Made by a program: the position numbers and the translations under genes. The notes under the pieces were generated by a model. The model was not told the DNA's origin, did not search any database, and saw nothing but the letters and a program-made list of their open reading frames with translations. Of a stretch of DNA of 9,119 bases, positions 1 to 9,119 are shown one piece after another. Origin of the DNA: a virus (Duplodnaviria; Heunggongvirae; Uroviricota; Caudoviricetes); IMG/VR virus record IMGVR_UViG_2698536443_000014, positions 1-9,119 of that record; one strand, 5' to 3'. The number at the start of each line of letters is the position of its first letter. The first letter of the stretch is position 1.

Positions 1-157
1 CCAGACCCGCCATAACCAGCTGGGTCAGTATTAACTGGCAGCGTTCGCGTGAAAGGTAAGTATTCTGCGCAATCTCCCCGACTGTCGCCGGTTCGGTGAC
101 GCTCAATTCATTAAACACCACTCTGGCGGTTTCGGTCATATCTTGCTGTTTTAGCAT
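1..157 (-). CDS. Partial CDS (5' end only; continues past window start), hypothetical protein with helix-turn-helix-like N-terminus
   Basis: Reverse-strand ATG at 157..155 opens a frame that stays open to position 1 (MLKQQDMTETARVVFNELSVTEPATVGEIAQNTYLSRERCQLILTQLVMAGL...). Not in the supplied ORF track because it has no stop in the window. The GEIAQ...SRERCQLIL segment has an HTH-like pattern. Identity unknown. Confidence 0.35.
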   Translation of the reverse strand, partial: MLKQQDMTETARVVFNELSVTEPATVGEIAQNTYLSRERCQLILTQLVMAGL

Positions 158-276
158 GTCTTTTTCCCTTCTGGTTAACATGACATACCAATAACTCTTG
201 TCTAAAAAGCCAGCAAGATAAAAAGTCAGTATTCACGACCACCAGCGTGTTTACTGTACTGCACCAAGTTTACAGG

Positions 277-304
277 TACAAAAAACCCGCTCAGTGGCGG
301 GTTT
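277..304 (-). terminator. Rho-independent terminator downstream of the 434..1051 gene
   Basis: Perfect 8-bp stem (283-290 AAACCCGC / 297-304 GCGGGTTT) with a 6-nt loop. On the minus-strand transcript the hairpin is followed by a U-run (UUUUUUGU, partly within the stem). It lies about 130 nt after the stop codon at 434. Confidence 0.55.
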
Positions 305-433
305 AAGTTGTGTGGCGAAGTAACCACTCTTAACACACTAATAGCATTTTTGTTATAACACAAGTAGCTCATTCAGTATTTTTAGAATCTTGACTTTCTT
401 AAGCACGGCGAACTCTGAATACCAAACATAAAA

Positions 434-1051
434 TCAATTATCTTCCAGGCCGGATGCTATCAACGAAAGCCTCTCAAAAAACGCTGTAGCAGCCTTGTCC
501 AAAGTTGAATAAGTACTGTATTCTCCGTGTTCGGGACCAACCACTACCCATGGTCGTCTTTTTGGGATTCGGGACTTCTCAGAAATCACTGTTCCAGATA
601 TACCAATATCAATTGTTACACCTGTTATTATTTTCTCTTCATCTCTTTCCCTGAACTCAATTGCCATAAATGCCGTTTTTTTTCGTTTCCCGTTTTTAAA
701 AAAATCAAATAAAGCAAAGCGATGCTCATTAAAATCAACACCCCATCGTCCTTCAGGATAAAGGGCATGAAAGTTGTCATTTACGCTCTGCATCGTCTCA
801 TAAGCTTTAACTTCTAAATCTCCATAGTGCATAGATACCGCGCAGGAGTCACTGGGTAACTGTATTTTCCCAAGATTGAAAACCTTTACTGCTCCAGAAC
901 TATGGCATCTTGCCCGCAATTTATCCCCATTTATACTAATCGGAGAAATATTCCTTAATGTTCCGGGCTGGCTCCCTCCTAAGTAAACGACTGTTAAAGA
1001 TTGCTTATTTTCAATTGCATCAACTAATACATGCTCTACATTTTTATCCAT
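434..1051 (-). CDS. Hypothetical protein, AT-rich accessory (moron-like) gene immediately downstream of Q; function unknown
   Basis: The ORF track gives 434..1078. I prefer the internal ATG at 1051 (MDKNVEHV...) because it is preceded by GGGAGA at about 5-nt spacing, whereas the ATG at 1078 has no Shine-Dalgarno sequence. Stop TGA at 436..434. The gene is visibly more AT-rich than flanking genes. I recognise no family signature in the protein. Confidence 0.6.
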   Translation of the reverse strand: MDKNVEHVLVDAIENKQSLTVVYLGGSQPGTLRNISPISINGDKLRARCHSSGAVKVFNLGKIQLPSDSCAVSMHYGDLEVKAYETMQSVNDNFHALYPEGRWGVDFNEHRFALFDFFKNGKRKKTAFMAIEFRERDEEKIITGVTIDIGISGTVISEKSRIPKRRPWVVVGPEHGEYSTYSTLDKAATAFFERLSLIASGLEDN

Positions 1052-1126
1052 AATAATCTCCCAATGAACAGGTATCATCAGGAGGTTATAATAAAATATG
1101 ATTATTTACTTTGATTGAATTTATTA

Positions 1127-1498
1127 CTATATGTAACAATCAATTTCTAAAGATACCCCCAACATTGCCAGACAACCGTCAATAAACCCTTCAGCTTTCT
1201 GCAGTCTGATAACAACCTGATTAAGTGATATCCCCAGTTTTACCCCCAACACCCGTAATGTAACCCCATACACATAATACATTTCCAGTAATTCGTATTG
1301 ATACGGTTCCTTTTTCTTAAGAACTGTCATCGCAGAGCTAATGATCAGGCCATCGTCATCGCTACATTGCGGGCGGGATTTTACTTTCGAAGGAATTAAT
1401 CCCTTAAAACCTGCAGCAACAGATGACCATTCCACATCCTCGTGATTATTTGCCACCCATGCCCCCCAACGTTCAAGAACCATTTGAATATCACGCAT
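1127..1498 (-). CDS. Late-gene antitermination protein Q (phage 82 / QuuD-QuuQ type)
   Basis: Protein MRDIQMVLERWGAWVANNHEDVEWSSVAAGFKGLIPSKVKSRPQCSDDD... matches from memory the N-terminus of Q82-type antiterminators of E. coli lambdoid prophages. Start taken at the ATG at 1498, preceded by GGAGAAAG; the track's TTG at 1513 is less likely. Stop TAG at 1129..1127. Confidence 0.85.
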   Translation of the reverse strand: MRDIQMVLERWGAWVANNHEDVEWSSVAAGFKGLIPSKVKSRPQCSDDDGLIISSAMTVLKKKEPYQYELLEMYYVYGVTLRVLGVKLGISLNQVVIRLQKAEGFIDGCLAMLGVSLEIDCYI

Positions 1499-1515
1499 CA
1501 ACTTTCTCCACAAAA

Positions 1516-2511
1516 TCAGGCCAGCACGCCTATTGCCAGCGCACGATCGATAAAACGAAATATCAGCTCCAGCTGGGAGCCATACTTCTCTTCAAATGCC
1601 ACGGTATCCGCATGCAGCTCGTCGTGATGCTTTCTGCACAAAGGCAGCACGAAGAGGTCATGCGCTTTTGTACCCATTCCCCCCTGACCGTGGCCTATCA
1701 GGTGGTGGGGATCATCAGCAGGCTTTCCACAACATGCACACGGCTGCGTCTTAACCCAGCGCGTGTACTTTTCGTTAACCCAGCGGCGACGTTTTGGGCG
1801 TAACATAAAAGACTCCGGCGACTCCGGATCCACTTTCAGCGCCAGCACCTTTTTCGCTTTATTCTGGATGATGCTGGTGGCCGGAACCGAAGGCACAAGG
1901 TCACTCTCCCGGGTGACAGACGGCACAACAGGCTTCGGTAATCTCAGTGCCTTACGGGCTGCACTTTCCGGTAAGGCATCCGCCAGATCATTACGAACCA
2001 GCCACCAGCACAGTTCCGGCATTGTCACAACGTGACTGTCATCAAAACCGAGATCCCGACGCACAACAGACAACACCCAGCGGGCACAGTTATCCGTTGC
2101 CATTGATTCCAGCCGTTCCGTGAACTGATCGCGCAGCTGGTTATCGCAGTGCCAGCACAGACGGATTGCGCCCGGCGCGTGTCGCATTGTGGTCATGTTC
2201 TCGCTGTGCCAGTCGGAATGAGGCCACTGGCAACCTTTTTCACGAAGTAACCAGCTTTCAAGACATTCCACGCCACCAGCACGACGGATCACTGCCTCAT
2301 TGCGGAACACGGCCCGAACGGCAGGATCATCCGCCAGCGGTTGTGATGCTGCCGGAACGGCACCACTGGCAAAAGATGAATAACGTTCCGGCTCAGGCTC
2401 CAGCAGGACACGCCCCTGCATAAACAGGGGCATCAGCTCTGAACCGGGTCTGAACAATACGATCCCCATACGCGGGGCAATTTCAGGGGTCAGTAGTGCT
2501 CTCACAGTCAC
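1516..2511 (-). CDS. DUF968-family (YdfU-like) phage protein with C-terminal Cys/His HNH-like motif
   Basis: 331-aa ORF. The C-terminal segment (CACCGKPADDPHHLIGHGQGGMGTKAHDLFVLPLCRKHHDELH) is a typical CxxC...HH...H motif of YdfU/DUF968 proteins that sit upstream of Q in lambdoid prophages. The start is uncertain: the track uses GTG at 2511, one base after the upstream gene's TGA, with weak ribosome-binding context. Confidence 0.65.
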   Translation of the reverse strand: MTVRALLTPEIAPRMGIVLFRPGSELMPLFMQGRVLLEPEPERYSSFASGAVPAASQPLADDPAVRAVFRNEAVIRRAGGVECLESWLLREKGCQWPHSDWHSENMTTMRHAPGAIRLCWHCDNQLRDQFTERLESMATDNCARWVLSVVRRDLGFDDSHVVTMPELCWWLVRNDLADALPESAARKALRLPKPVVPSVTRESDLVPSVPATSIIQNKAKKVLALKVDPESPESFMLRPKRRRWVNEKYTRWVKTQPCACCGKPADDPHHLIGHGQGGMGTKAHDLFVLPLCRKHHDELHADTVAFEEKYGSQLELIFRFIDRALAIGVLA

Positions 2512-2512
2512 C

Positions 2513-3322
2513 TCAATGAACGGTATCGAGCAGCTTTAACAGCTCAGGAAATCGGGATTCGAAGAAATGCGGCTGCGTCTCGCGCGGATTTGCAGGACTG
2601 GTGATGTTCTTGCCGAACATGCAGCCTTTCGCGGTCAGCGACCAGAATTTTTTGATGTTGTTAATCGCGGTACGGCTGTATCGTTCGCGTTGTTCAACGA
2701 TCCCCAGCTTCACCATCTGGTGATATGCCTGATTAGCCGTCAGGCGGATACCATACTGCTTCAGCAGTGCACTCAGTGACAGCGTGGGGCGGCTTGAGCC
2801 ATCAGGCGCGTCAGCAGGAGCATCAATGGCATAGCGCGGTGCCAGATTCGGTAAGCCAACAGCCTCCTGGAGTTTCTGACAGGCCCCAAGCACTGAAGAG
2901 TTAGACAGGTTTAACTCCCTGCGCATAAAGTCCAGCAGAATCACTCCAGCCTGCATCTTGTCAGCAGCCTGCCCGGATAATTTTTCCGGTGCGCTGGTTA
3001 CCATATCGAAAGTACGGATCACCTTCAGATGGAATGACGGGCTGATCCACATTGCATAGGCATACACCAGTTCTTTGCAGACATACGTCCCCTGGTTATT
3101 TCCGCCATTAATGACGCTAACTGGTTGATTTTGTTCCAGAGGCGGAATTCCACCCTCGGTGAAAAGTTGTTCAATCAATTCACAGGTTTGCTTATTGGAG
3201 AGCCAGTATTTCGGGCGTTTTTTTTGTTCTCCCCCGGCTGCCCTGTGCAGATCGTTCAGGCTGTAACGCCCATAAGCATCACGACGAACTTCAATACCAT
3301 CAATGACCATCAGATTATTCAT
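2513..3322 (-). CDS. KilA-N domain protein (antirepressor/Bro-like family)
   Basis: N-terminus (VIDGIEVRRDAYGRYSLNDLHRAAGG...RPKYWLSNKQTCELIEQL...GTYVCKELVYAYAMWISPSFHLKVI) matches the KilA-N DNA-binding domain signature. Strong Shine-Dalgarno (AAGAGGAGAAA) upstream of ATG 3322. Stop TGA at 2515..2513. Confidence 0.8.
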   Translation of the reverse strand: MNNLMVIDGIEVRRDAYGRYSLNDLHRAAGGEQKKRPKYWLSNKQTCELIEQLFTEGGIPPLEQNQPVSVINGGNNQGTYVCKELVYAYAMWISPSFHLKVIRTFDMVTSAPEKLSGQAADKMQAGVILLDFMRRELNLSNSSVLGACQKLQEAVGLPNLAPRYAIDAPADAPDGSSRPTLSLSALLKQYGIRLTANQAYHQMVKLGIVEQRERYSRTAINNIKKFWSLTAKGCMFGKNITSPANPRETQPHFFESRFPELLKLLDTVH

Positions 3323-3341
3323 ACTTCGTTTCTCCTCTTAA

Positions 3342-3731
3342 TCAGGCGGCTGCACCCGCCGTTTTCTCGTACTTACTGATAGTGATCTCGACCTTCCCTC
3401 CCGGGATAACCGATCCCCACTCAACCAGCATTCTTTTCACCTGACTGTCGTCTTCCCACACACCCGCGTGGGTCAGGGCGTCAAACAGCGCCTTGTTATA
3501 GTTGTCCAGATCGCGGATCCGGTTATCCGGAGGAAACAACACGATCTCCACTGAAGCAGGTGCCGACGTTGGTTTCGGCAGACGACGTAACTGCTCAATG
3601 ATGGCGGCACACGCCGCGCTCTGGAATTTTCGTCCCGCCGTGCTTATCAGGCTCTTACCAGCAAACGCCCCTTTGTTGGGGTGTCGCCAGTACGTGTTCA
3701 CGCTGGGCGGAAACGGCAGAATCAGCTTCAT
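3342..3731 (-). CDS. rusA: Holliday junction resolvase RusA (crossover junction endodeoxyribonuclease)
   Basis: 129-aa protein (MKLILPFPPSVNTYWRH...DNRIRDLDNYNKALFDALTHAGVWEDDSQV...) carries the RusA family signature, including the catalytic-region D-x-D-N motif. Start ATG 3731 overlaps the upstream stop (ATGA). Confidence 0.85.
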   Translation of the reverse strand: MKLILPFPPSVNTYWRHPNKGAFAGKSLISTAGRKFQSAACAAIIEQLRRLPKPTSAPASVEIVLFPPDNRIRDLDNYNKALFDALTHAGVWEDDSQVKRMLVEWGSVIPGGKVEITISKYEKTAGAAA

Positions 3732-4054
3732 ACTTTCAGGCCCCTCTCATGTAACCAGTGGGCTGCACGCAGCCTGGCGTTTTCCTCACCGGCAAGCAGT
3801 GAGCGGATAATCCCGACCGCCTCGCTGTCGTCGTCCTTCACCGCGGTATGAAGCGTGATGCCCCGGGCCACGCCACGCTTTATCGTGATGACGCCTTTTT
3901 TCTCCAGTGCGCGAAGATGCTCCACTGCTGCATTCACTGAACGGTATCCCAGCATGGTTGCCACCTCCTGATTGGTTGGCGGAAAGCCACGCTCTTTCTG
4001 GTAAGAAATCAGCATATCCAGCACCTGCTGCTGGCATTGAGTTAACGTCGTCAT
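3728..4054 (-). CDS. LexA N-terminal DNA-binding-domain-like protein lacking the S24 peptidase domain
   Basis: MTTLTQCQQQVLDMLISYQKERGFPPTNQEVATMLGYRSVNAAVEHLRALEKKGVITI resembles the LexA winged-helix DNA-binding domain (MKALTARQQEVF...[36 protein letters not shown]). The ORF is only 108 aa, so there is no autoprotease domain. ATGA overlaps at both ends. Confidence 0.65.
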   Translation of the reverse strand: MTTLTQCQQQVLDMLISYQKERGFPPTNQEVATMLGYRSVNAAVEHLRALEKKGVITIKRGVARGITLHTAVKDDDSEAVGIIRSLLAGEENARLRAAHWLHERGLKV

Positions 4055-4704
4055 GCCGCCATCTCCCTGACAAGTTTTTCTGCCTGCTGGCGAACCTGCG
4101 CCAGAAAGGCCTCACCACATGCCTCAAGTTCATCGCGCCCGATGTAGCTGATTGCCGGTCCCTTCCAGGTCTTGTCGAAAACAGCAATAGCACCAGCGAA
4201 GAACGCTCCTGTCGGCACCTGCTTCTCGTCTTTCGGGATAAACCAGACAGGCAGTTCAAAACCAATACGCCCGCGAATAAAAGCAATATGATCTGCATCT
4301 TCCGGCCACCACACTTCGCTGGTGGCAGCTTTGATCAGGAAAACATAGCGCCCGCCTTTATCACGCATGGCACTGGCATGCTTCATGATGTAACGCATGC
4401 CGGTGATGTATTGCCCCTCATGCTGACTGGCGCGGCTGTATGGGGGATTTCCAAAGGCAGCACCTTTAAGCTCCGCAAGACGTTCTGACCAGTCATGCGC
4501 CAGCGCGTTGTCTTCCGCCGTGTAATACGCGGCGCATTTGGCGTTATCACCGTCAGTAAACAGATCCAGAACAAACGGGCCAAACAGGGTGTTAATTCCC
4601 CAGAAAATGTTGTCCGGTGTGCGCCACTGATCGCCCACTTCCTTCAGTTCATGGGCTGGTTTGTTTCGCAGTTCCACCAGCGCCCGGCAATATTTATTAC
4701 TCAT
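4051..4704 (-). CDS. Phage N6-adenine DNA methyltransferase (Dam-like, NPPY motif)
   Basis: Contains the FGNPPY catalytic motif and upstream DLFTD-type motif typical of phage Dam-family methyltransferases. Start taken at ATG 4704..4702 (MSNKYCR...), which forms a TAATG overlap with the upstream stop; the track's 4737 start is a GTG extension. Confidence 0.8.
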   Translation of the reverse strand: MSNKYCRALVELRNKPAHELKEVGDQWRTPDNIFWGINTLFGPFVLDLFTDGDNAKCAAYYTAEDNALAHDWSERLAELKGAAFGNPPYSRASQHEGQYITGMRYIMKHASAMRDKGGRYVFLIKAATSEVWWPEDADHIAFIRGRIGFELPVWFIPKDEKQVPTGAFFAGAIAVFDKTWKGPAISYIGRDELEACGEAFLAQVRQQAEKLVREMAA

Positions 4705-5192
4705 TAAGCCCCCACGTAATTCCCTGACAGATACCACTCTTCACCTGATGCAGCGCGCTTGCTGCTTTTCCGTAAGCACCGCTCACGACGTGCCAGAAAA
4801 TTGTTTCGTTCTGGCTGGGAGTGGCTTTCACGGAATGCCGCCATCCACACGGTTGCAGCACGACGAAATAAGCCCCTGGACTCCAGTTCTTCCGCCTGGC
4901 GGGCCAGGCACAAAATCACCCGCGGGTCGTTAGTGCCGACATAGAAATTGCGCACAGGTCTGGTTTCACGAACTGGTTGCCGTTCCGCCTCCGGCGATAT
5001 CTTTGTCTGGCGCGGGAAATGTCTGCGTGCATCCCCTTCACAACGGTGAGCCACACGCCCACTCTGACGTAACTTGCTTGCTGACTGCAGAACGCGCTGC
5101 CGTGAGTAACCTGTAAAAGCATCCGCAATGTCTCCGGAAGTACACCCCGGATGGGCTTCAATGAATTTCTGAACGTCATTCAAAAGACTCAT
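4704..5192 (-). CDS. Hypothetical protein with C-terminal PerC/ANR-like motif
   Basis: 162 aa from ATG 5192 (Shine-Dalgarno AGGGGG; the track's GTG at 5198 is 2 codons upstream). The C-terminal segment LARQAEELESRGLFRRAATVWMAAFRE...RRERC resembles, from memory, the conserved core of PerC/ANR-family small regulators. The N-terminal half is unassigned. Confidence 0.5.
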   Translation of the reverse strand: MSLLNDVQKFIEAHPGCTSGDIADAFTGYSRQRVLQSASKLRQSGRVAHRCEGDARRHFPRQTKISPEAERQPVRETRPVRNFYVGTNDPRVILCLARQAEELESRGLFRRAATVWMAAFRESHSQPERNNFLARRERCLRKSSKRAASGEEWYLSGNYVGA

Positions 5193-5194
5193 GC

Positions 5195-6136
5195 TCACCC
5201 CCTGAATCCTGCCGGGATCTGGCTGTAGTCCACGTTGTCGTAACTGGCTTTGAAGTACGGGTCCTCGCGTTTTTCGGTGTACGTGCTGACGGACGGCGAT
5301 AAGCGCAGGGAAAGCTCATCCCATTTTTCCCGCAGCTTCGACGGGCTGAGCACGTTACGGCACCAGAACGGATCGCGACTGACGCGGCTGTACATCTCGC
5401 AGATTTGTTTATGAGTATGACCATCCTGCACACACATCAGGCGAATTTCGTTTGCCCAGGCTGTCCAGTTCGGTTCTTTGGGACGAACCACCTCGCCGTC
5501 ACATTCGGCAGCCTGCTCGTACAGGGCAATGATTTTTTTCCAGAGCCACTGTGCGCAGGTCAAATCATCCTGCGTCCCCCACTGGCGCTTTTTAGGGCTG
5601 AATACAACCGCATCAGGATGGCGAGTTAAAAAATCCTGTTCATCCGTCTGCGTGTCCGGTTGCGAAGCGTCCGGACGAGAAGGTTTTTTATCTGACGGAT
5701 CATGTTTTGATTTTACTGACGGATCCCCGCCAGATTCTGACGGGTGAAAACCCGCTTTTTTACCAGATTTCGACGCATCAAATTTTGACGGGTCAGATTT
5801 TGATGCGTCAGATTTTGACGGGTCAGAATCTGACAGTTGAGAAAATGCCGCTGCCTGAAGCTTCGCAACGTTAAGCTGATAAACATTCGACGCATTGCGG
5901 TTACCCTGGCGACGCGCCTTACGCGTTAACCAGCCTTCTGCTTCCAGCCGTGCGATAGCCGTTCTGACGGTACTCATCCCCGCGCCAATCTGGCGGGCAA
6001 TGGTTTCAATTGATGGCCAGCACACACCTTCGTCATTACTGAAATCAGCCAGGCGGGCCATAATTGCCACGCTGGATAACTTCATGCCTGACGCAGCGCA
6101 ACCATCCCATACATAGCCGGTTAATTTAGTGCTCAT
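5195..6136 (-). CDS. Phage replication initiation protein (N-terminal HTH domain, repeat-rich linker, DnaT-like C-terminal region)
   Basis: The N-terminus (LSSVAIMARLADFSNDEGVCWPSIETIARQIGAGMSTVRTAIARLEAEGWL) is a winged-HTH typical of prophage replication initiators. The central linker is encoded by tandem repeats. The C-terminal region resembles the DnaT-like domain of prophage replication proteins, called from memory. It occupies the O-gene position after cro/cII. Confidence 0.7.
   Translation of the reverse strand: MSTKLTGYVWDGCAASGMKLSSVAIMARLADFSNDEGVCWPSIETIARQIGAGMSTVRTAIARLEAEGWLTRKARRQGNRNASNVYQLNVAKLQAAAFSQLSDSDPSKSDASKSDPSKFDASKSGKKAGFHPSESGGDPSVKSKHDPSDKKPSRPDASQPDTQTDEQDFLTRHPDAVVFSPKKRQWGTQDDLTCAQWLWKKIIALYEQAAECDGEVVRPKEPNWTAWANEIRLMCVQDGHTHKQICEMYSRVSRDPFWCRNVLSPSKLREKWDELSLRLSPSVSTYTEKREDPYFKASYDNVDYSQIPAGFRG
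5690..5836. repeat. Iteron-like direct repeats (candidate replication origin) inside the initiator gene
   Basis: About five tandem copies of a 14-15-bp unit (TCAGATTTTGACGGG, TCAGATTTTGATGCG, TCAAATTTTGACGGG, CCAGATTTCGACGCA, TCAGAATCTGACAG) between about 5762 and 5836, plus degenerate copies with the TCTGACGG core at 5691, 5715 and 5735. In the protein frame they encode S-D-x-S-K repeats. Confidence 0.5.
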
Positions 6137-6145
6137 GACCGACCT

Positions 6146-6484
6146 CTATTTCCCTGAATTTACGACGAAACTGTTCGAGCGGACTGAAGCATTCATGCTC
6201 ATAACCTTCGCGGAGGTAGATAACCCGTTGTGTTTCCGGCTCCCAACGAATGACTCTGACGGGCACTCCGTAGTGATCTTTGAACCAGCGGTTAACTTGT
6301 CGCAAAGGACTGTCTCCTTCTGCCGGTTGAAATCACCCACAGCCCACTCTGCAAAGCTGTGGGTTACAATTTCCCTGTCACCTGGTACATTCACTGCATA
6401 GCAATATTCCACCTTCGCTTTTCCACCCGGAACAGGAAGCGCAATCAGTTGCGAGCGACGGTAGTGTGTTGTTAAACTGTTCAT
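6146..6484 (-). CDS. Hypothetical protein (C-terminal half doubtful; possible frameshift or overlapping gene)
   Basis: Start ATG 6484 overlaps the stop of the upstream CII-like gene (ATGA), which supports a real gene start. The N-terminal ~50 aa look protein-like, but the C-terminal half is Ser/Thr-rich and low-complexity, while an alternative frame over 6126..6305 looks far more protein-like (see findings). Confidence 0.4.
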
Positions 6485-7065
6485 GCGTTAGTTTCTCCAC
6501 AACCAGAAGCAATCGACGCCACGACGCCCGGAGCTGCACACTCGCGGGCGTTACTCTTTTCCGGCGCACAAAAAACACGAAATAACAGTGTTAAATGCTC
6601 CTGCCACTTCGCCATTACTTGGTAGCTGTTCTCTTCGATTTGCTCACGCTCAGCCTGGTCAATAACTCCATCAGCAGTTGCCTTGCGTAAGTACTGGGAA
6701 TGCTTGCCAATCCATTCTATTGACTCCATCAGCCGCTGATTAATGTCACCATTGTCAATGTCATCAATGACCACCAGCGGCACAAACACCCCATTACTAC
6801 GACGGGCTATTGCATCTGTTACATGCCTGGTACCACTGGCATCCTGTAAAACCATGGCCCACTCAAGTGGAAAAATTTGATCCCCACCGCTACGCAGTCT
6901 GTTATGCAATTGATCTTTTGCTGGGGTGATATCATCAGATTTATACAAACCAAGAATTTCTGCTGCTTCCTCATAGCCATGAGGTAAATCAGCAATCGTT
7001 CTTCGTATTGCTGCCACCAGCCATGCTGGTTGTTTATCAACTTTCCATTCAGGTTCTTTACCCAC
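6481..7065 (-). CDS. CII-like early regulatory protein (CP76/YdaT-type position and size), putative
   Basis: 194-aa ORF immediately downstream of Cro, GTG start at 7065 preceded by TGAGGA at about 6-nt spacing. The position is that of lambda cII or of the YdaT/CP76-type CII equivalents of E. coli cryptic prophages. The family call is by context and memory only. Confidence 0.45.
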
Positions 7066-7092
7066 GGTTAATTCCTCATTTCTGTGGTGTTT

Positions 7093-7290
7093 TTATGCCG
7101 CAGCACTGTTAGTCTTTTGATATAAAGACACGTCAACTTTCAGTTTCCCGTTAGTAATTTTTTCTAACTGGTACGCTCGGCCTTCAGGAATAATCTCAGG
7201 CCACTCTGAAACAGACGGATGCTTAATACCTAGGGCTTCGGCGGTTTTACAAACTCCGCCGAAATAATTAATCACGTCGGATTTCCGCAT
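7093..7290 (-). CDS. cro: Cro-like repressor (P22 Cro type)
   Basis: MRKSDVINYFGGVCKTAEALGIKHPSVSEWPEIIPEGRAYQLEKITNGKLKVDVSLYQ aligns along its length with P22 Cro as I recall it (MYKKDVIDHFGTQRAVAKALGISDAAVSQWKEVIPEKDAYRLEIVTAGALKYQ). It is divergent from the repressor gene across the operator region, with Shine-Dalgarno GGGAGA. Confidence 0.8.
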   Translation of the reverse strand: MRKSDVINYFGGVCKTAEALGIKHPSVSEWPEIIPEGRAYQLEKITNGKLKVDVSLYQKTNSAAA

Positions 7291-7321
7291 TTCTGTCTCC
7301 CGTTAAATTACGTTAAGCAGA

Positions 7322-7387
7322 AATGTAGGATATCCAACATGCTAATGTCAAGAATCCTACATGGGCATGTGGTAGGATTGCCTACAT
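7322..7387. promoter_or_regulatory. Right operator region (OR) with pR-like promoter (minus strand) overlapping the presumptive pRM
   Basis: 18-bp near-palindrome ATGTAGGATATCCAACAT at 7323..7340. Further half-site copies ATCCTACAT at 7354..7362 and GTAGGATTGCCTACAT at 7372..7387. On the minus strand: -35 TTGACA (complement of 7346..7351), 17-bp spacer, -10 CTACAT/TACATT (complement of about 7322..7328), directed toward cro. Confidence 0.6.
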
Positions 7388-8039
7388 GATGAACATGAGT
7401 GATCGTATTCGCCAAAGGCGAAAAGAACTGAACCTGACACAACAAGCACTGGCTGATTTGACTGGTGTGAACCGTGTCACGGTTACTGGATGGGAAAAGG
7501 ACGACTACCAACCAAATGGAGCCAACCTTCAAGCCCTAGCCAACGCACTTAAATGCGATCCTCTGTGGCTTGTTAGCGGAAAAGGCTCGCCTGAACCAAA
7601 GATAAATCTAAAACCTGAAATATTCGCAGTTAAAAAAGTCCCCCTAATCTCGTGGGTTCAGGCGGGTTCATGGACAATGACGGAGCCTGGTGTCAGGAAA
7701 GAAGATGCTGAAGAGTGGGTTTATACTACCGCCCTTGTATCAGAAATGGCATTTGCACTACGGGTCCGTGGTGATTCAATGACCAATCCCCTCGGCTCAC
7801 CATCGATACCAGAAGGTTCTATCGTTATCGTAGAGCCAGATATTATTGATACAGAGTGTATTAACGGAAAAATCGTTGTTGCCCATATCAATGGTGGGCA
7901 AGAAGCGACACTCAAAAAATTTGTTGAGGACTGGCCGAACAGGTATCTCGTCCCACTAAATCCTAACTATAAAACTATTGAATGCGGTGAGAACTGTAGA
8001 ATAGTTGGTCTTGTCAAACAAGTAATAATGGATTTTTGA
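7386..8039 (+). CDS. cI: CI-like prophage repressor (HTH-XRE N-terminal domain, S24 LexA-like peptidase C-terminal domain)
   Basis: N-terminal HTH (IRQRRKELNLTQQALADLTGVNRVTVTGWE). C-terminal S24 autopeptidase signature with GDSM serine motif and a downstream lysine (LRVRGDSMTNPL...EATLKKF). Starts at the edge of the operator region, consistent with a short-leader pRM transcript. Confidence 0.85.
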   Translation: MMNMSDRIRQRRKELNLTQQALADLTGVNRVTVTGWEKDDYQPNGANLQALANALKCDPLWLVSGKGSPEPKINLKPEIFAVKKVPLISWVQAGSWTMTEPGVRKEDAEEWVYTTALVSEMAFALRVRGDSMTNPLGSPSIPEGSIVIVEPDIIDTECINGKIVVAHINGGQEATLKKFVEDWPNRYLVPLNPNYKTIECGENCRIVGLVKQVIMDF

Positions 8040-8060
8040 CACATCTTCCTCACTATCGCA

Positions 8061-8085
8061 AAACCGGGGTATCCCCGGTTTTTTT
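8061..8085 (+). terminator. Rho-independent terminator after the repressor gene
   Basis: Stem ACCGGGG (8063-8069) / CCCCGGT (8073-8079) with a 3-nt loop, followed by a T7 run (8079-8085), 22 nt after the repressor stop codon. Confidence 0.6.
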
Positions 8086-8101
8086 ATGAGCCTATCTTTT
8101 T

Positions 8102-8155
8102 ATGTAGGATAACCAACATAAACTCTTGACACTCGCATGTTGGATATCCTACATT
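8102..8155 (+). promoter_or_regulatory. Left operator region (OL) with pL-like promoter
   Basis: ATGTAGGATAACCAACAT (8102..8119) and ATGTTGGATATCCTACAT (8137..8154, the exact reverse complement of the OR site at 7323..7340) flank and overlap -35 TTGACA (8126..8131), a 17-18-bp spacer and -10 CTACAT/TACATT (8149..8155). Spacer and -10 are almost identical to the pR-like promoter. Confidence 0.55.
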
Positions 8156-8313
8156 TGTTTTTAGAGTTGTGGTGAATGCGCAGGCTGATGCGCGAAAGAC
8201 ATTGCAGCTATTGCGGAAAAGAGCTGTTCGGCGGGGCAATTAAACGCCCGTGAGAGTCTGAAATAACCGCAAGCCGGAGATCAGCATCGGTCACCACAGC
8301 AGCCACTGCTTTG

Positions 8314-8360
8314 GCGGTACCAGTTTGTACACTTGCTTCCGGCTGGTACCGCTCTTTTTA
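8314..8360 (+). terminator. Long hairpin plus T-run in the pL leader (terminator-like; boxA-like CGCTCTTTTTA overlaps its 3' side)
   Basis: Perfect 10-bp stem GCGGTACCAG (8314-8323) / CTGGTACCGC (8343-8352) with a 19-nt loop, followed by TCTTTTTA. CGCTCTTTTTA at 8350..8360 resembles the boxA consensus (CGCTCTTTA). The long loop makes efficient termination uncertain. Confidence 0.4.
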
Positions 8361-8482
8361 CAAAACAGAGAAGAGCATCACCGGACGACGGGCTCATAAC
8401 CCAATCCACCCGGGCGGCTGCCACCGCAGGTGTTCTTCTCTGTTTTGTGGAGAAACTAATATCTTGTGCAGAGGAAAATAGA

Positions 8483-9029
8483 ATGAAATTACCAAAATTT
8501 CGTAACGCAATTGTGTACCGAGCAACATTACCTAGTATACAGGCTATTGAAGGTCATCTTCTCGAACTCCCTTATTCTGAAATCGGGGAAACAGAATTTT
8601 CACGGTCCTCTTTTGTAGAGAATCCTGTCACTGGTGAACTGGTAACTCCGATATCTGGTGGGTACGCAATGGTAATCCGTCATGATCAGAAAATAATTCC
8701 CCGACATGTCGTCATGAAAGAAGCTAATTCTCGAATCCGAACAATCGAAAATATGTCCGGGAATAAATTAAAGCGTGCCGAACGACTGGCCATTATTGAT
8801 AACGTACGAGTAGATCTATGCAAACAGGCATTTGTTAAGTCTACGCTGATTCTTGCATTGTACAGCACTGATGAGAAATTATTGGTAATCAACACAACCA
8901 ATAAAATAATAGCCGGTATGGTATGCGCAATGCTGATTAAGGTTGTCGGTTCAGTGAAAACAGAAACAATCAACATCAGTGATATCAAGAATGGACTGAC
9001 TACACGCCTGAATAACTACATCAATGGTG
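8483..9029 (+). pseudogene. RdgC-family recombination-associated protein gene, 3'-truncated by IS1 insertion
   Basis: ATG 8483 with Shine-Dalgarno GAGGAAAA; the track's 8333 start is a TTG extension through the leader. N-terminus MKLPKFRNAIVYRA matches the RdgC N-terminus (MLWFKNLMVYRL as recalled), with further colinear similarity over about 180 aa. The frame ends at a TAA (9032..9034) supplied by the IS1 terminus; full RdgC is about 300 aa. The gene is AT-rich. Confidence 0.6.
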
Positions 9030-9119
9030 GGTAATGACTCCAACTTACTGATAGTGTTTTATGTTCAGATAATGCCCGATGACCTTGTCATGCAGCTCCA
9101 CCGATTTTGAGAACGACAG
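9030..9119 (-). mobile_element. IS1 insertion sequence, terminal 90 bp (right inverted repeat end; element continues beyond window)
   Basis: 9030..9119 (GGTAATGACTCCAACTTACTGATAGTGTTTTATGTTCAGATAATGCCCGATGACCTTGTCATGCAGCTCCACCGATTTTGAGAACGACAG) matches the reverse complement of the IS1 right end, including the terminal inverted repeat GGTAATGACTCCAACTTATTGAT, with about 2 mismatches. Compared from memory. Confidence 0.85.
9045..9119 (-). CDS. insB: IS1 transposase InsB, 3' end (partial; start lies beyond window end)
   Basis: The minus-strand frame reads ...LSFSKSVELHDKVIGHYLNIKHYQ followed by a stop (TAA, complement of 9045..9047), which matches the InsB C-terminus as I recall it. Confidence 0.75.
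   Translation of the reverse strand: MSFSKSVELHDKVIGHYLNIKHYQ

Follow-up and report, generated by a model that had tools for sequence, protein, structure and literature searches.

IS1 interruption of a phage rdgC gene and a conserved structured leader RNA in the predicted early-left operon of a lambdoid prophage

Introduction

What does an insertion sequence at the very end of a short prophage contig signify: decay of the prophage, a rearrangement, or simple transposition into one of its genes, and how might that gene have been expressed? The question is raised by a 9119-nucleotide stretch of phage DNA, hereafter referred to as the window, which is the whole of the draft contig CYFN01000098.1 (assembly GCA_001283445.1, annotated as Escherichia coli). 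Near its right end lies a gene for an RdgC-like protein that runs directly into IS1 sequence. A ring-shaped dimeric structure, non-specific DNA binding, and RecA inhibition are known only for the RdgC proteins of E. coli, Pseudomonas aeruginosa, and Neisseria (PMC1885664, PMC2965237). In lambdoid phages, RdgC has been described as lying just to the left of cI, and its occurrence there has been linked to the homology between RexA and RdgC (PMC12315714). RexA is indeed a structural homologue of RdgC (PMC11077077). On this basis a RexA-like role has been proposed for lambdoid RdgC, with the suggestion that its gene, in the manner of rexA, may be part of the cI transcript (PMC12315714).

Results

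Structure of the junction

The features at the right end of the window are as follows.

9030..9119, minus strand: IRR end of IS1; the terminal inverted repeat begins at 9030 (GGTAATGACTCCAACTTACTGAT) and the element runs past the end of the contig
9119..9045, minus strand: 3' end of insB, 24 codons and the stop codon (translation compared with K-12 InsB)
8483..9029, plus strand: native phage part of rdgC, codons 1-182 and the first base of codon 183
8483..9034, plus strand: chimeric 183-codon open reading frame, the last codon (GGG) and the stop codon TAA (9032-9034) being completed by IS1

The segment from 9030 to 9119 can be aligned gap-free with the IRR end of IS1A from K-12 (L002:197-286), at 88 identities in 90 positions, and in this alignment the terminal inverted repeat, GGTAATGACTCCAACTTAYTGAT..., is present at the end of the element. 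Translation of the minus strand gives LSFSKSVELHDKVIGHYLNIKHYQ followed by a stop codon, and in each of these 24 residues it agrees with the C-terminal end of K-12 InsB; both nucleotide differences, at 9048 and 9084, are thus synonymous. The insB reading frame terminates just inside the IRR, as is the case for the IS1 family. A full IS1 element is approximately 768 bp in length, carries insA, a frameshift site, and an IRL, and generates a target-site duplication of 8-9 bp; the family assignment made here rests on 90 nucleotides of the right end, for the contig stops 90 nucleotides into the element. IS1-like matches to this tail are found in thousands of E. coli records, with a median of 10 matching places per genome. 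Given the 88 of 90 identities and a breakpoint that coincides with the IS1 terminus to the base, chance can be dismissed as the source of the match. The first-pass annotation had read the last 90 bp as the right end of IS1 with its terminal inverted repeat and the C-terminal InsB frame on the minus strand, and had called for an alignment to an IS1 reference; on each of these points its reading stands, as does the insertion itself.

The interrupted frame begins with an ATG at position 8483, which is preceded by AGAGGAAAATAGA, and remains open to the TAA at 9032..9034. Codon 183 is composed of a G from rdgC and a GG from IS1, and specifies glycine (GGG) as opposed to the alanine (GCA) of the intact allele. 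The stop codon is IS1 sequence. In 20 complete E. coli genomes there is a prophage segment, 98.6-99.4% identical and carrying an annotated rdgC, that matches the window from 8260 to 9029 and no further. The intact allele, as found in strain SCU-482, is 918 nucleotides in length and encodes 305 residues, and the window product is identical to its N-terminus at 181 of 183 positions. The DNA homology to intact alleles breaks exactly after 9029, and the IS1 terminus follows at the next base. Both the assertion that IS1 cuts the frame at about codon 183 of some 300 and the assertion that it supplies the stop codon are thus borne out.

The protein cluster at 90% identity to which the product belongs has 186 members, and the commonest form among those listed is 305 residues long (461 contigs). 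The other short members that were examined are N-terminal or contig-edge partials, and the exact 183-residue product occurs on two contigs only. A natural family of about 183 residues, which had been named as an observation that would overturn the truncation, was not seen; the only 183-residue member ends in IS1 sequence. The junction between rdgC and IS1 was found neither in 5,426 complete E. coli genomes nor in phage records, and an exact search of the GTDB representative genomes, a collection that lacks the source assembly, gave no match. Because the junction is absent from the complete E. coli and GTDB representative genomes and the product is present on two contigs only, the insertion is a recent, strain-specific event. 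A match to phage SfIV that extends to position 9119 proved to be an unrelated IS1 near Q rather than the rdgC junction.

Two observations concern how such fragments are recorded. The 183-residue frame is present at NCBI as WP_261289479.1, which is named RdgC with no indication of the truncation in the name. Additionally, a 72-residue frame outside of the window (protein P0016, MELSGCGVTF...) is identical to the C-terminus of this RdgC. It is called as a gene of its own on three further E. coli contigs, the largest of which reaches 84 kb, and therefore rdgC is disrupted in other strains as well. Some caution is warranted in that an IS-terminated, truncated reading frame can find its way into reference protein sets in the guise of a complete one.

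Domain content of the truncated protein

The window product matches the Pfam RdgC profile PF04381 with an E-value of 2.3e-22 and a score of 80.1 bits (cut-off 25 bits), residues 6-166 covering profile positions 3-167 of 298. The profile search that the first-pass annotation had proposed thus returns a match well above the cut-off that spans part of the profile, and the NCBIfam RdgC models show the same partial coverage. The intact 305-residue allele covers positions 3-278 of the 298. RdgC homologues were located in 196 phage records, in 166 of which at least 80% of the 305-residue query is covered, and the full-length relatives, among those listed, have 302-318 residues.

In the P. aeruginosa structure of RdgC, the centre domain is formed by residues 1-73 and 121-167, the tip domain by 74-120, and the base domain by 168-306 (PMC1885664). 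[quoted passage not shown] The intact phage protein aligns over residues 6-259 with E. coli RdgC (2OWL; E=2.3e-9), and this alignment places residue 182 approximately 15 residues into the base domain. The window product does not display the full architecture of centre, tip, and base domains in some 300 residues. It keeps the centre and tip domains and lacks essentially the whole base domain (~168-305), and with it dimer interface B. Ring closure and normal function would presumably be lost.

Immunity region and placement of rdgC

The region upstream of rdgC contains the following features.

7386..8039, plus strand: gene for a cI-like repressor of 217 residues with HTH_3 and Peptidase_S24 domains (Pfam, gene call)
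8059..8086, no strand assigned: hairpin AAAACCGGGGTATCCCCGGTTTTTTT, terminator-like on both strands with A and T runs at its flanks, directly 3' of the cI stop codon (read from the sequence)
8102..8154, no strand assigned: putative oL, two 18-bp operator palindromes ATGTAGGATATCCAACAT at 8102-8119 and 8137-8154 (motif count against shuffles)
8126..8155, plus strand: pL-like promoter, TTGACA-18-TACATT (mirror of the pR-like promoter)
7351..7322, minus strand: pR-like promoter (mirror image of pL)

The palindrome ATGTAGGATATCCAACAT occurs at three sites in the window (7323, 8102, and 8137), with none expected on the basis of 200 shuffles. These sites lie over the -10 region of pR (7323-7340), over the -10 region of pL, and just upstream of pL. 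The first gene 3' of pL is rdgC. Since the terminator-like hairpin, the operators, and pL are all positioned between cI and rdgC, expression of the latter should be early-lytic and repressed in lysogens. By this prediction a repressor-controlled early-left (pL) operon begins with rdgC; the mirrored promoters, the three operators, and the order cI-pL-rdgC agree with the first-pass annotation, which had assigned an RdgC homologue to that position. Co-transcription with cI, the RexA-like arrangement, is not what the window displays, for the predicted terminator, oL, and pL intervene. The predicted pL placement would thus refine, or contradict, the suggestion that the gene lies in the cI transcript (PMC12315714). 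The layout argues for an early-lytic role of RdgC, which might be, for example, the damping of RecA after induction, and it argues against a RexA-like function in the lysogen.

A structured leader RNA downstream of pL

Between pL and the rdgC start codon lies a leader with the following elements.

8314..8359, plus strand: leader hairpin 1, a 12-bp GC-rich stem followed by UCUUUUU, terminator-like (folding, comparison of relatives)
8360..8448, plus strand: leader hairpin 2, in which 8360-8379 and 8429-8448 pair to form a covarying outer stem of 20 bp (covariation)
8380-8413, plus strand: apical core of hairpin 2, nearly invariant (comparison of relatives)
8449-8456, plus strand: conserved GGAGAAAC after hairpin 2 (comparison of relatives)

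The stretch from pL to the start codon is strongly structured, with a minimum free energy of -77.6 kcal/mol (z=-5.5). The leader itself, of approximately 140 nucleotides (8314..8460), is also present in the related sequences L003, L007-L010, and L012-L131. Its invariant core, ACGGGCTCATNNCCCAATCC, is found in at least 120 IMG/VR viral contigs, which belong to N-less lambdoid phages, and there are 93 distinct versions of the element among the matches listed. All matches listed have the same order of hairpin 1, hairpin 2, GUGGAGAAAC, and a small hairpin that adjoins the Shine-Dalgarno sequence. The stem of hairpin 1 is wholly different in sequence between lineages, and a stem with a run of five to seven U residues is always kept. 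Hairpin 2 forms a three-way junction in which the second inner hairpin is hypervariable.

Covariation was assessed with 41 distinct sequences anchored on the core, the hypervariable part being replaced by a linker. This set replaced an earlier MAFFT/RNAalifold pass with eight sequences, in which the covariation was weak and the distant sequences were misaligned. Across the 41 sequences the proposed pairs of hairpin 2 are formed in 95.6% of cases as compared to 43-53% when the 3' partners are slid, and eight pairs are changed on both sides as compared to 0-3. The covariation score is 0.171 as opposed to 0.03-0.07 for the slid pairings and was reached in 0 of 500 shuffles; note that the structure was derived from the same sequences and that the alignment was anchored on the core. 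Stem position 9 flips from G-C to C-G (26 versus 15 sequences), position 4 from A-U to C-G, and position 15 from A-U to G-C. Pairs between U and G are frequent, which points to an RNA of the pL-sense strand. A DNA palindrome or a minus-strand RNA is disfavoured for hairpin 2, given that its many U·G and G·U pairs would become mismatched on the opposite strand.

The leader is single-copy, no second copy having been found within the window, and in the K-12 prophage CPS-53 the element is lost. There is no match to it in Rfam, which has no put model and is thus uninformative on put. A search of the HK022 genome with nhmmer gave a best E-value of 1.8, at an unrelated site, and there is no similarity to the putL sequence; identity with HK022 put was rejected on the basis of sequence. 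A boxA/nut-like reading of CGCUCUUUUUACAA, which follows hairpin 1, was dropped as its position is not conserved in the Klebsiella relative.

The first-gene slot among relatives

Most relatives match the window to ~8459 and then diverge into another first gene. In the 98 leader-bearing IMG/VR contigs among the matches listed, the first gene is YfdP-like in 70, canonical RdgC in 11 (Pfam E=1.5e-115), YfdR-like in nine, and window-type RdgC in five. RdgC, in two lineages, is thus first in the pL operon in 16 of these 98 contigs. In the Klebsiella phage ST101-KPC2phi6.3 and the Yersinia phage YeP3, an RdgC homologue (67% and 47% identity, respectively) is the first sizeable gene after cI. The view that RdgC in this position is in itself notable does not hold up, for the arrangement recurs in the 16 of 98 contigs among the matches listed and in the Klebsiella and Yersinia phages, and it is already in print (PMC12315714). 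The slot is not occupied by an N antiterminator gene with nutL; it holds rdgC in the window and yfdP, yfdR, or rdgC in relatives. Phage LLS, a member of the same group, has no N (PMC12315714).

As a separate observation, the mosaic boundary is sharp; it is located at ~8456-8460, just upstream of the Shine-Dalgarno sequence, and the same leader is joined there to alternative first genes.

State of the prophage and ends of the contig

The first-pass annotation had taken the insertion as a sign of a decaying or cryptic prophage, and the remainder of the window lends this no support. The other 13 complete reading frames adjoin or overlap one another, as the genes of an intact operon do, and those for Q, DUF968, KilA-N, RusA, Dam, PerC, and the O-like protein are equal in length to their counterparts in the intact relative L001. 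No signs of decay were seen in the rest of the window. Phage HK022 (L011, 26601..27657) carries IS903 inside its early-left (pL) operon, and in phage SfIV (L003, 3821..4324) an IS1 transposase gene adjoins Q. SfIV is reported to carry both IS1 and ISEhe3 (PMC3851460). Viable lambdoid phages thus bear IS elements at comparable positions, a precedent that cautions against taking an IS as the mark of a cryptic prophage. A cryptic state is possible, but it is not indicated.

The window stops 90 nucleotides inside IS1 because the short-read assembler broke at the repeat. The right contig end is an assembly break at a multicopy repeat, non-biological in nature, and since the window is a complete contig ending in a repeat there is no basis for reading its end as a biological breakpoint. 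The left end (1-440) is prophage sequence with up to eight matching places per E. coli genome. Both ends lie in sequence that occurs in multiple places and are therefore repeat-induced breaks; indeed, short contigs are expected because several lambdoid prophages have sequence in common. An IS at a contig end should accordingly be treated with caution, being uninformative on prophage decay. Isolated phages, including vB_EcoM-720R4 and SKA5, are 97-98% identical to the window across long stretches.

Other features of the window

The segment 8166..8301, corresponding to the first ~136 nucleotides of the pL transcript, has a counterpart of 97% identity in P1-family phages (P1, RCS47, and JL22). 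The P1-family counterpart follows shortly after tRNA-Asn/tRNA-Thr, in overlap with the 3' end of plp. The segment contains arginine-rich reading frames of 24-25 residues, and neither a tRNA nor a significant fold was found within it. On the minus strand at 3728..4054, between RusA and Dam, there is a 108-residue reading frame with the LexA DNA-binding domain (PF01726) and no peptidase. The relative L001, although otherwise colinear, lacks this frame, which could encode a non-cleavable, LexA-like regulator. Finally, 176..312 on the plus strand gives a weak match, below threshold, to the Rfam model of the enterobacterial sRNA STnc130 (30 bits versus a gathering score of 55, E=0.24), which is probably due to chance.

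Discussion

The junction is very probably the product of a transposition of IS1 into a phage rdgC, the first gene of the predicted pL operon of an N-less lambdoid prophage in E. coli, which would leave a 183-residue product devoid of the base domain in a window that ends at a repeat break. Assignment of the prophage to the mosaic group of SfV, SfII, ST64B, and mEp460 forms part of this best explanation. The interruption of rdgC falls after nucleotide 547 of 918, with insA/insB oriented against pL transcription. A simple insertion would predict, on the far side of the element, ...GTAAGTTGGCAGCATCACC (the IRL end), then TCAATGGTG (the duplicated target, or 8/9 bases), and then CAGCCAATGCATTTGAAGG (the rest of rdgC). 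The expected 9-bp target duplication would be a copy of 9021..9029 (TCAATGGTG), so that the predicted continuation reads GTAAGTTGGCAGCATCACC, TCAATGGTG, and CAGCCAATGCATTTGAAGGATTC in succession. IS1 prefers AT-rich targets, and rdgC, with a GC content of 40% in the part retained as compared to 49.6% for positions 1..8482 of the window, fits this preference. IS1 is also strongly polar in either orientation, as is evident from the gal and lac insertions. For this reason the insertion would be expected to lower pL-driven expression of the genes downstream, which in intact relatives run from yfdR to xis-int, unless the phage has processive antitermination.

Three other accounts of the junction were considered. 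IS1 might mark a rearrangement. Through IS1-mediated deletion of neighbouring DNA, or through recombination of one IS1 copy with another, the 3' portion of rdgC and the remainder of the early-left arm would then have been lost or moved elsewhere, with a truncated, cryptic prophage as the outcome. The many IS1 copies of an E. coli genome (a median of 10 matching places) would provide substrates for such an event, the contig is just 9.1 kb in length, the far side was not recovered, and the edge-partial C-terminal products that were guessed are absent from the protein collection. Those look-ups, however, hinge on a guessed exact sequence and are hence uninformative, and short contigs are to be expected from sequence common to several lambdoid prophages, the left end alone having up to eight places per genome. 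Simple transposition is, moreover, the commonest outcome, and the remaining window shows no decay. We regard a rearrangement as unlikely. An assembly artefact, that is, a chimeric contig end that joins rdgC and IS1 reads, is brought to mind by the location of the junction at the extreme end of a contig assembled from short reads. The break coincides to the base, however, with the start of the IS1 terminal repeat, which transposition predicts and random chimerism does not, and the same 183-residue product is present on a second contig or sample; such an artefact is therefore highly improbable.

It could also be imagined that the 183-residue protein is a natural short isoform of RdgC, the centre and tip having been selected for a function of their own, inasmuch as the fragment keeps the centre domain and the tip-domain interface A. 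Yet IS1 furnishes its stop codon as well as part of its last codon, the full-length relatives listed all have 302-318 residues, and the protein is found on two contigs only. A natural isoform is effectively refuted. With transposition as the preferred reading, the truncation of rdgC is an ordinary kind of mutation, and by itself the event carries small weight, being a textbook-type knockout of an accessory phage gene in one strain.

Of greater worth is the surrounding context, namely the pL control of lambdoid rdgC and the leader. What is new here is the leader RNA, which is conserved, covarying, and undescribed. With yfdP, yfdR, and two lineages of rdgC as interchangeable first genes behind it, the leader may be a cis-acting control device of the early-left operon, working through antitermination, through processing by RNase III, or through control of translation, with RdgC as an early-lytic rather than a RexA-like protein; we consider this reading evenly poised between right and wrong. 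The leader of the lambda N gene is subject to RNase III processing and translational control. By analogy, processing by RNase III or control of translation would be at least as likely for the present leader as an action of the put type.

Comparison with known systems

The insertion resembles those of IS903 in HK022, of IS1 and ISEhe3 in SfIV, and of IS1 in gal and lac in that an IS is located inside a transcription unit, the phage cases lying within phage genomes. It differs in its target, which here is rdgC, at a site not found in the 5,426 complete E. coli genomes. In HK022, put-mediated antitermination can read through the IS.

With respect to the bacterial proteins (E. coli 2OWL and P. aeruginosa RdgC), the phage gene gives the same profile matches and has a similar length of ~305 residues. 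Bacterial RdgC is a ring-shaped, DNA-binding, RecA-inhibiting dimer. Window-type RdgC constitutes a divergent phage lineage, with a full-length score of 108 bits as compared to 386 bits for canonical-type phage RdgC, and it scores under the NCBIfam curated cut-offs. HrdC of phage P1 is also a phage-encoded member of the RdgC family, but the identity is only 22% and the genomic context is different.

Lambda RexA is likewise a DNA-binding protein with the RdgC fold, and its gene immediately adjoins that of the repressor in the same orientation. It belongs, however, to the cI transcript, which places it upstream of pL, and its expression takes place in lysogens, whereas the phage rdgC described here sits behind pL. 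In addition, rexA has a rexB partner and rdgC has none.

The leader and HK022 put are both cis-encoded, structured RNAs downstream of pL in lambdoid phages without N. They differ in length (~140 versus ~70 nucleotides), in position (150-290 nucleotides downstream of pL versus +1), and in pairing (a near-perfect 20-bp stem versus bulged stems). The put elements of HK022 are paired, as putL and putR, whereas the leader is without a putR-like partner, and the terminator-like hairpin ahead of its conserved hairpin fits poorly with an action of the put type. A put-like RNA has been postulated for phage LLS (PMC12315714). That phage carries the leader, which is thus a concrete candidate for the put-like device postulated in the N-less LLS, and which could open the control of early transcription in N-less lambdoid phages to direct tests.
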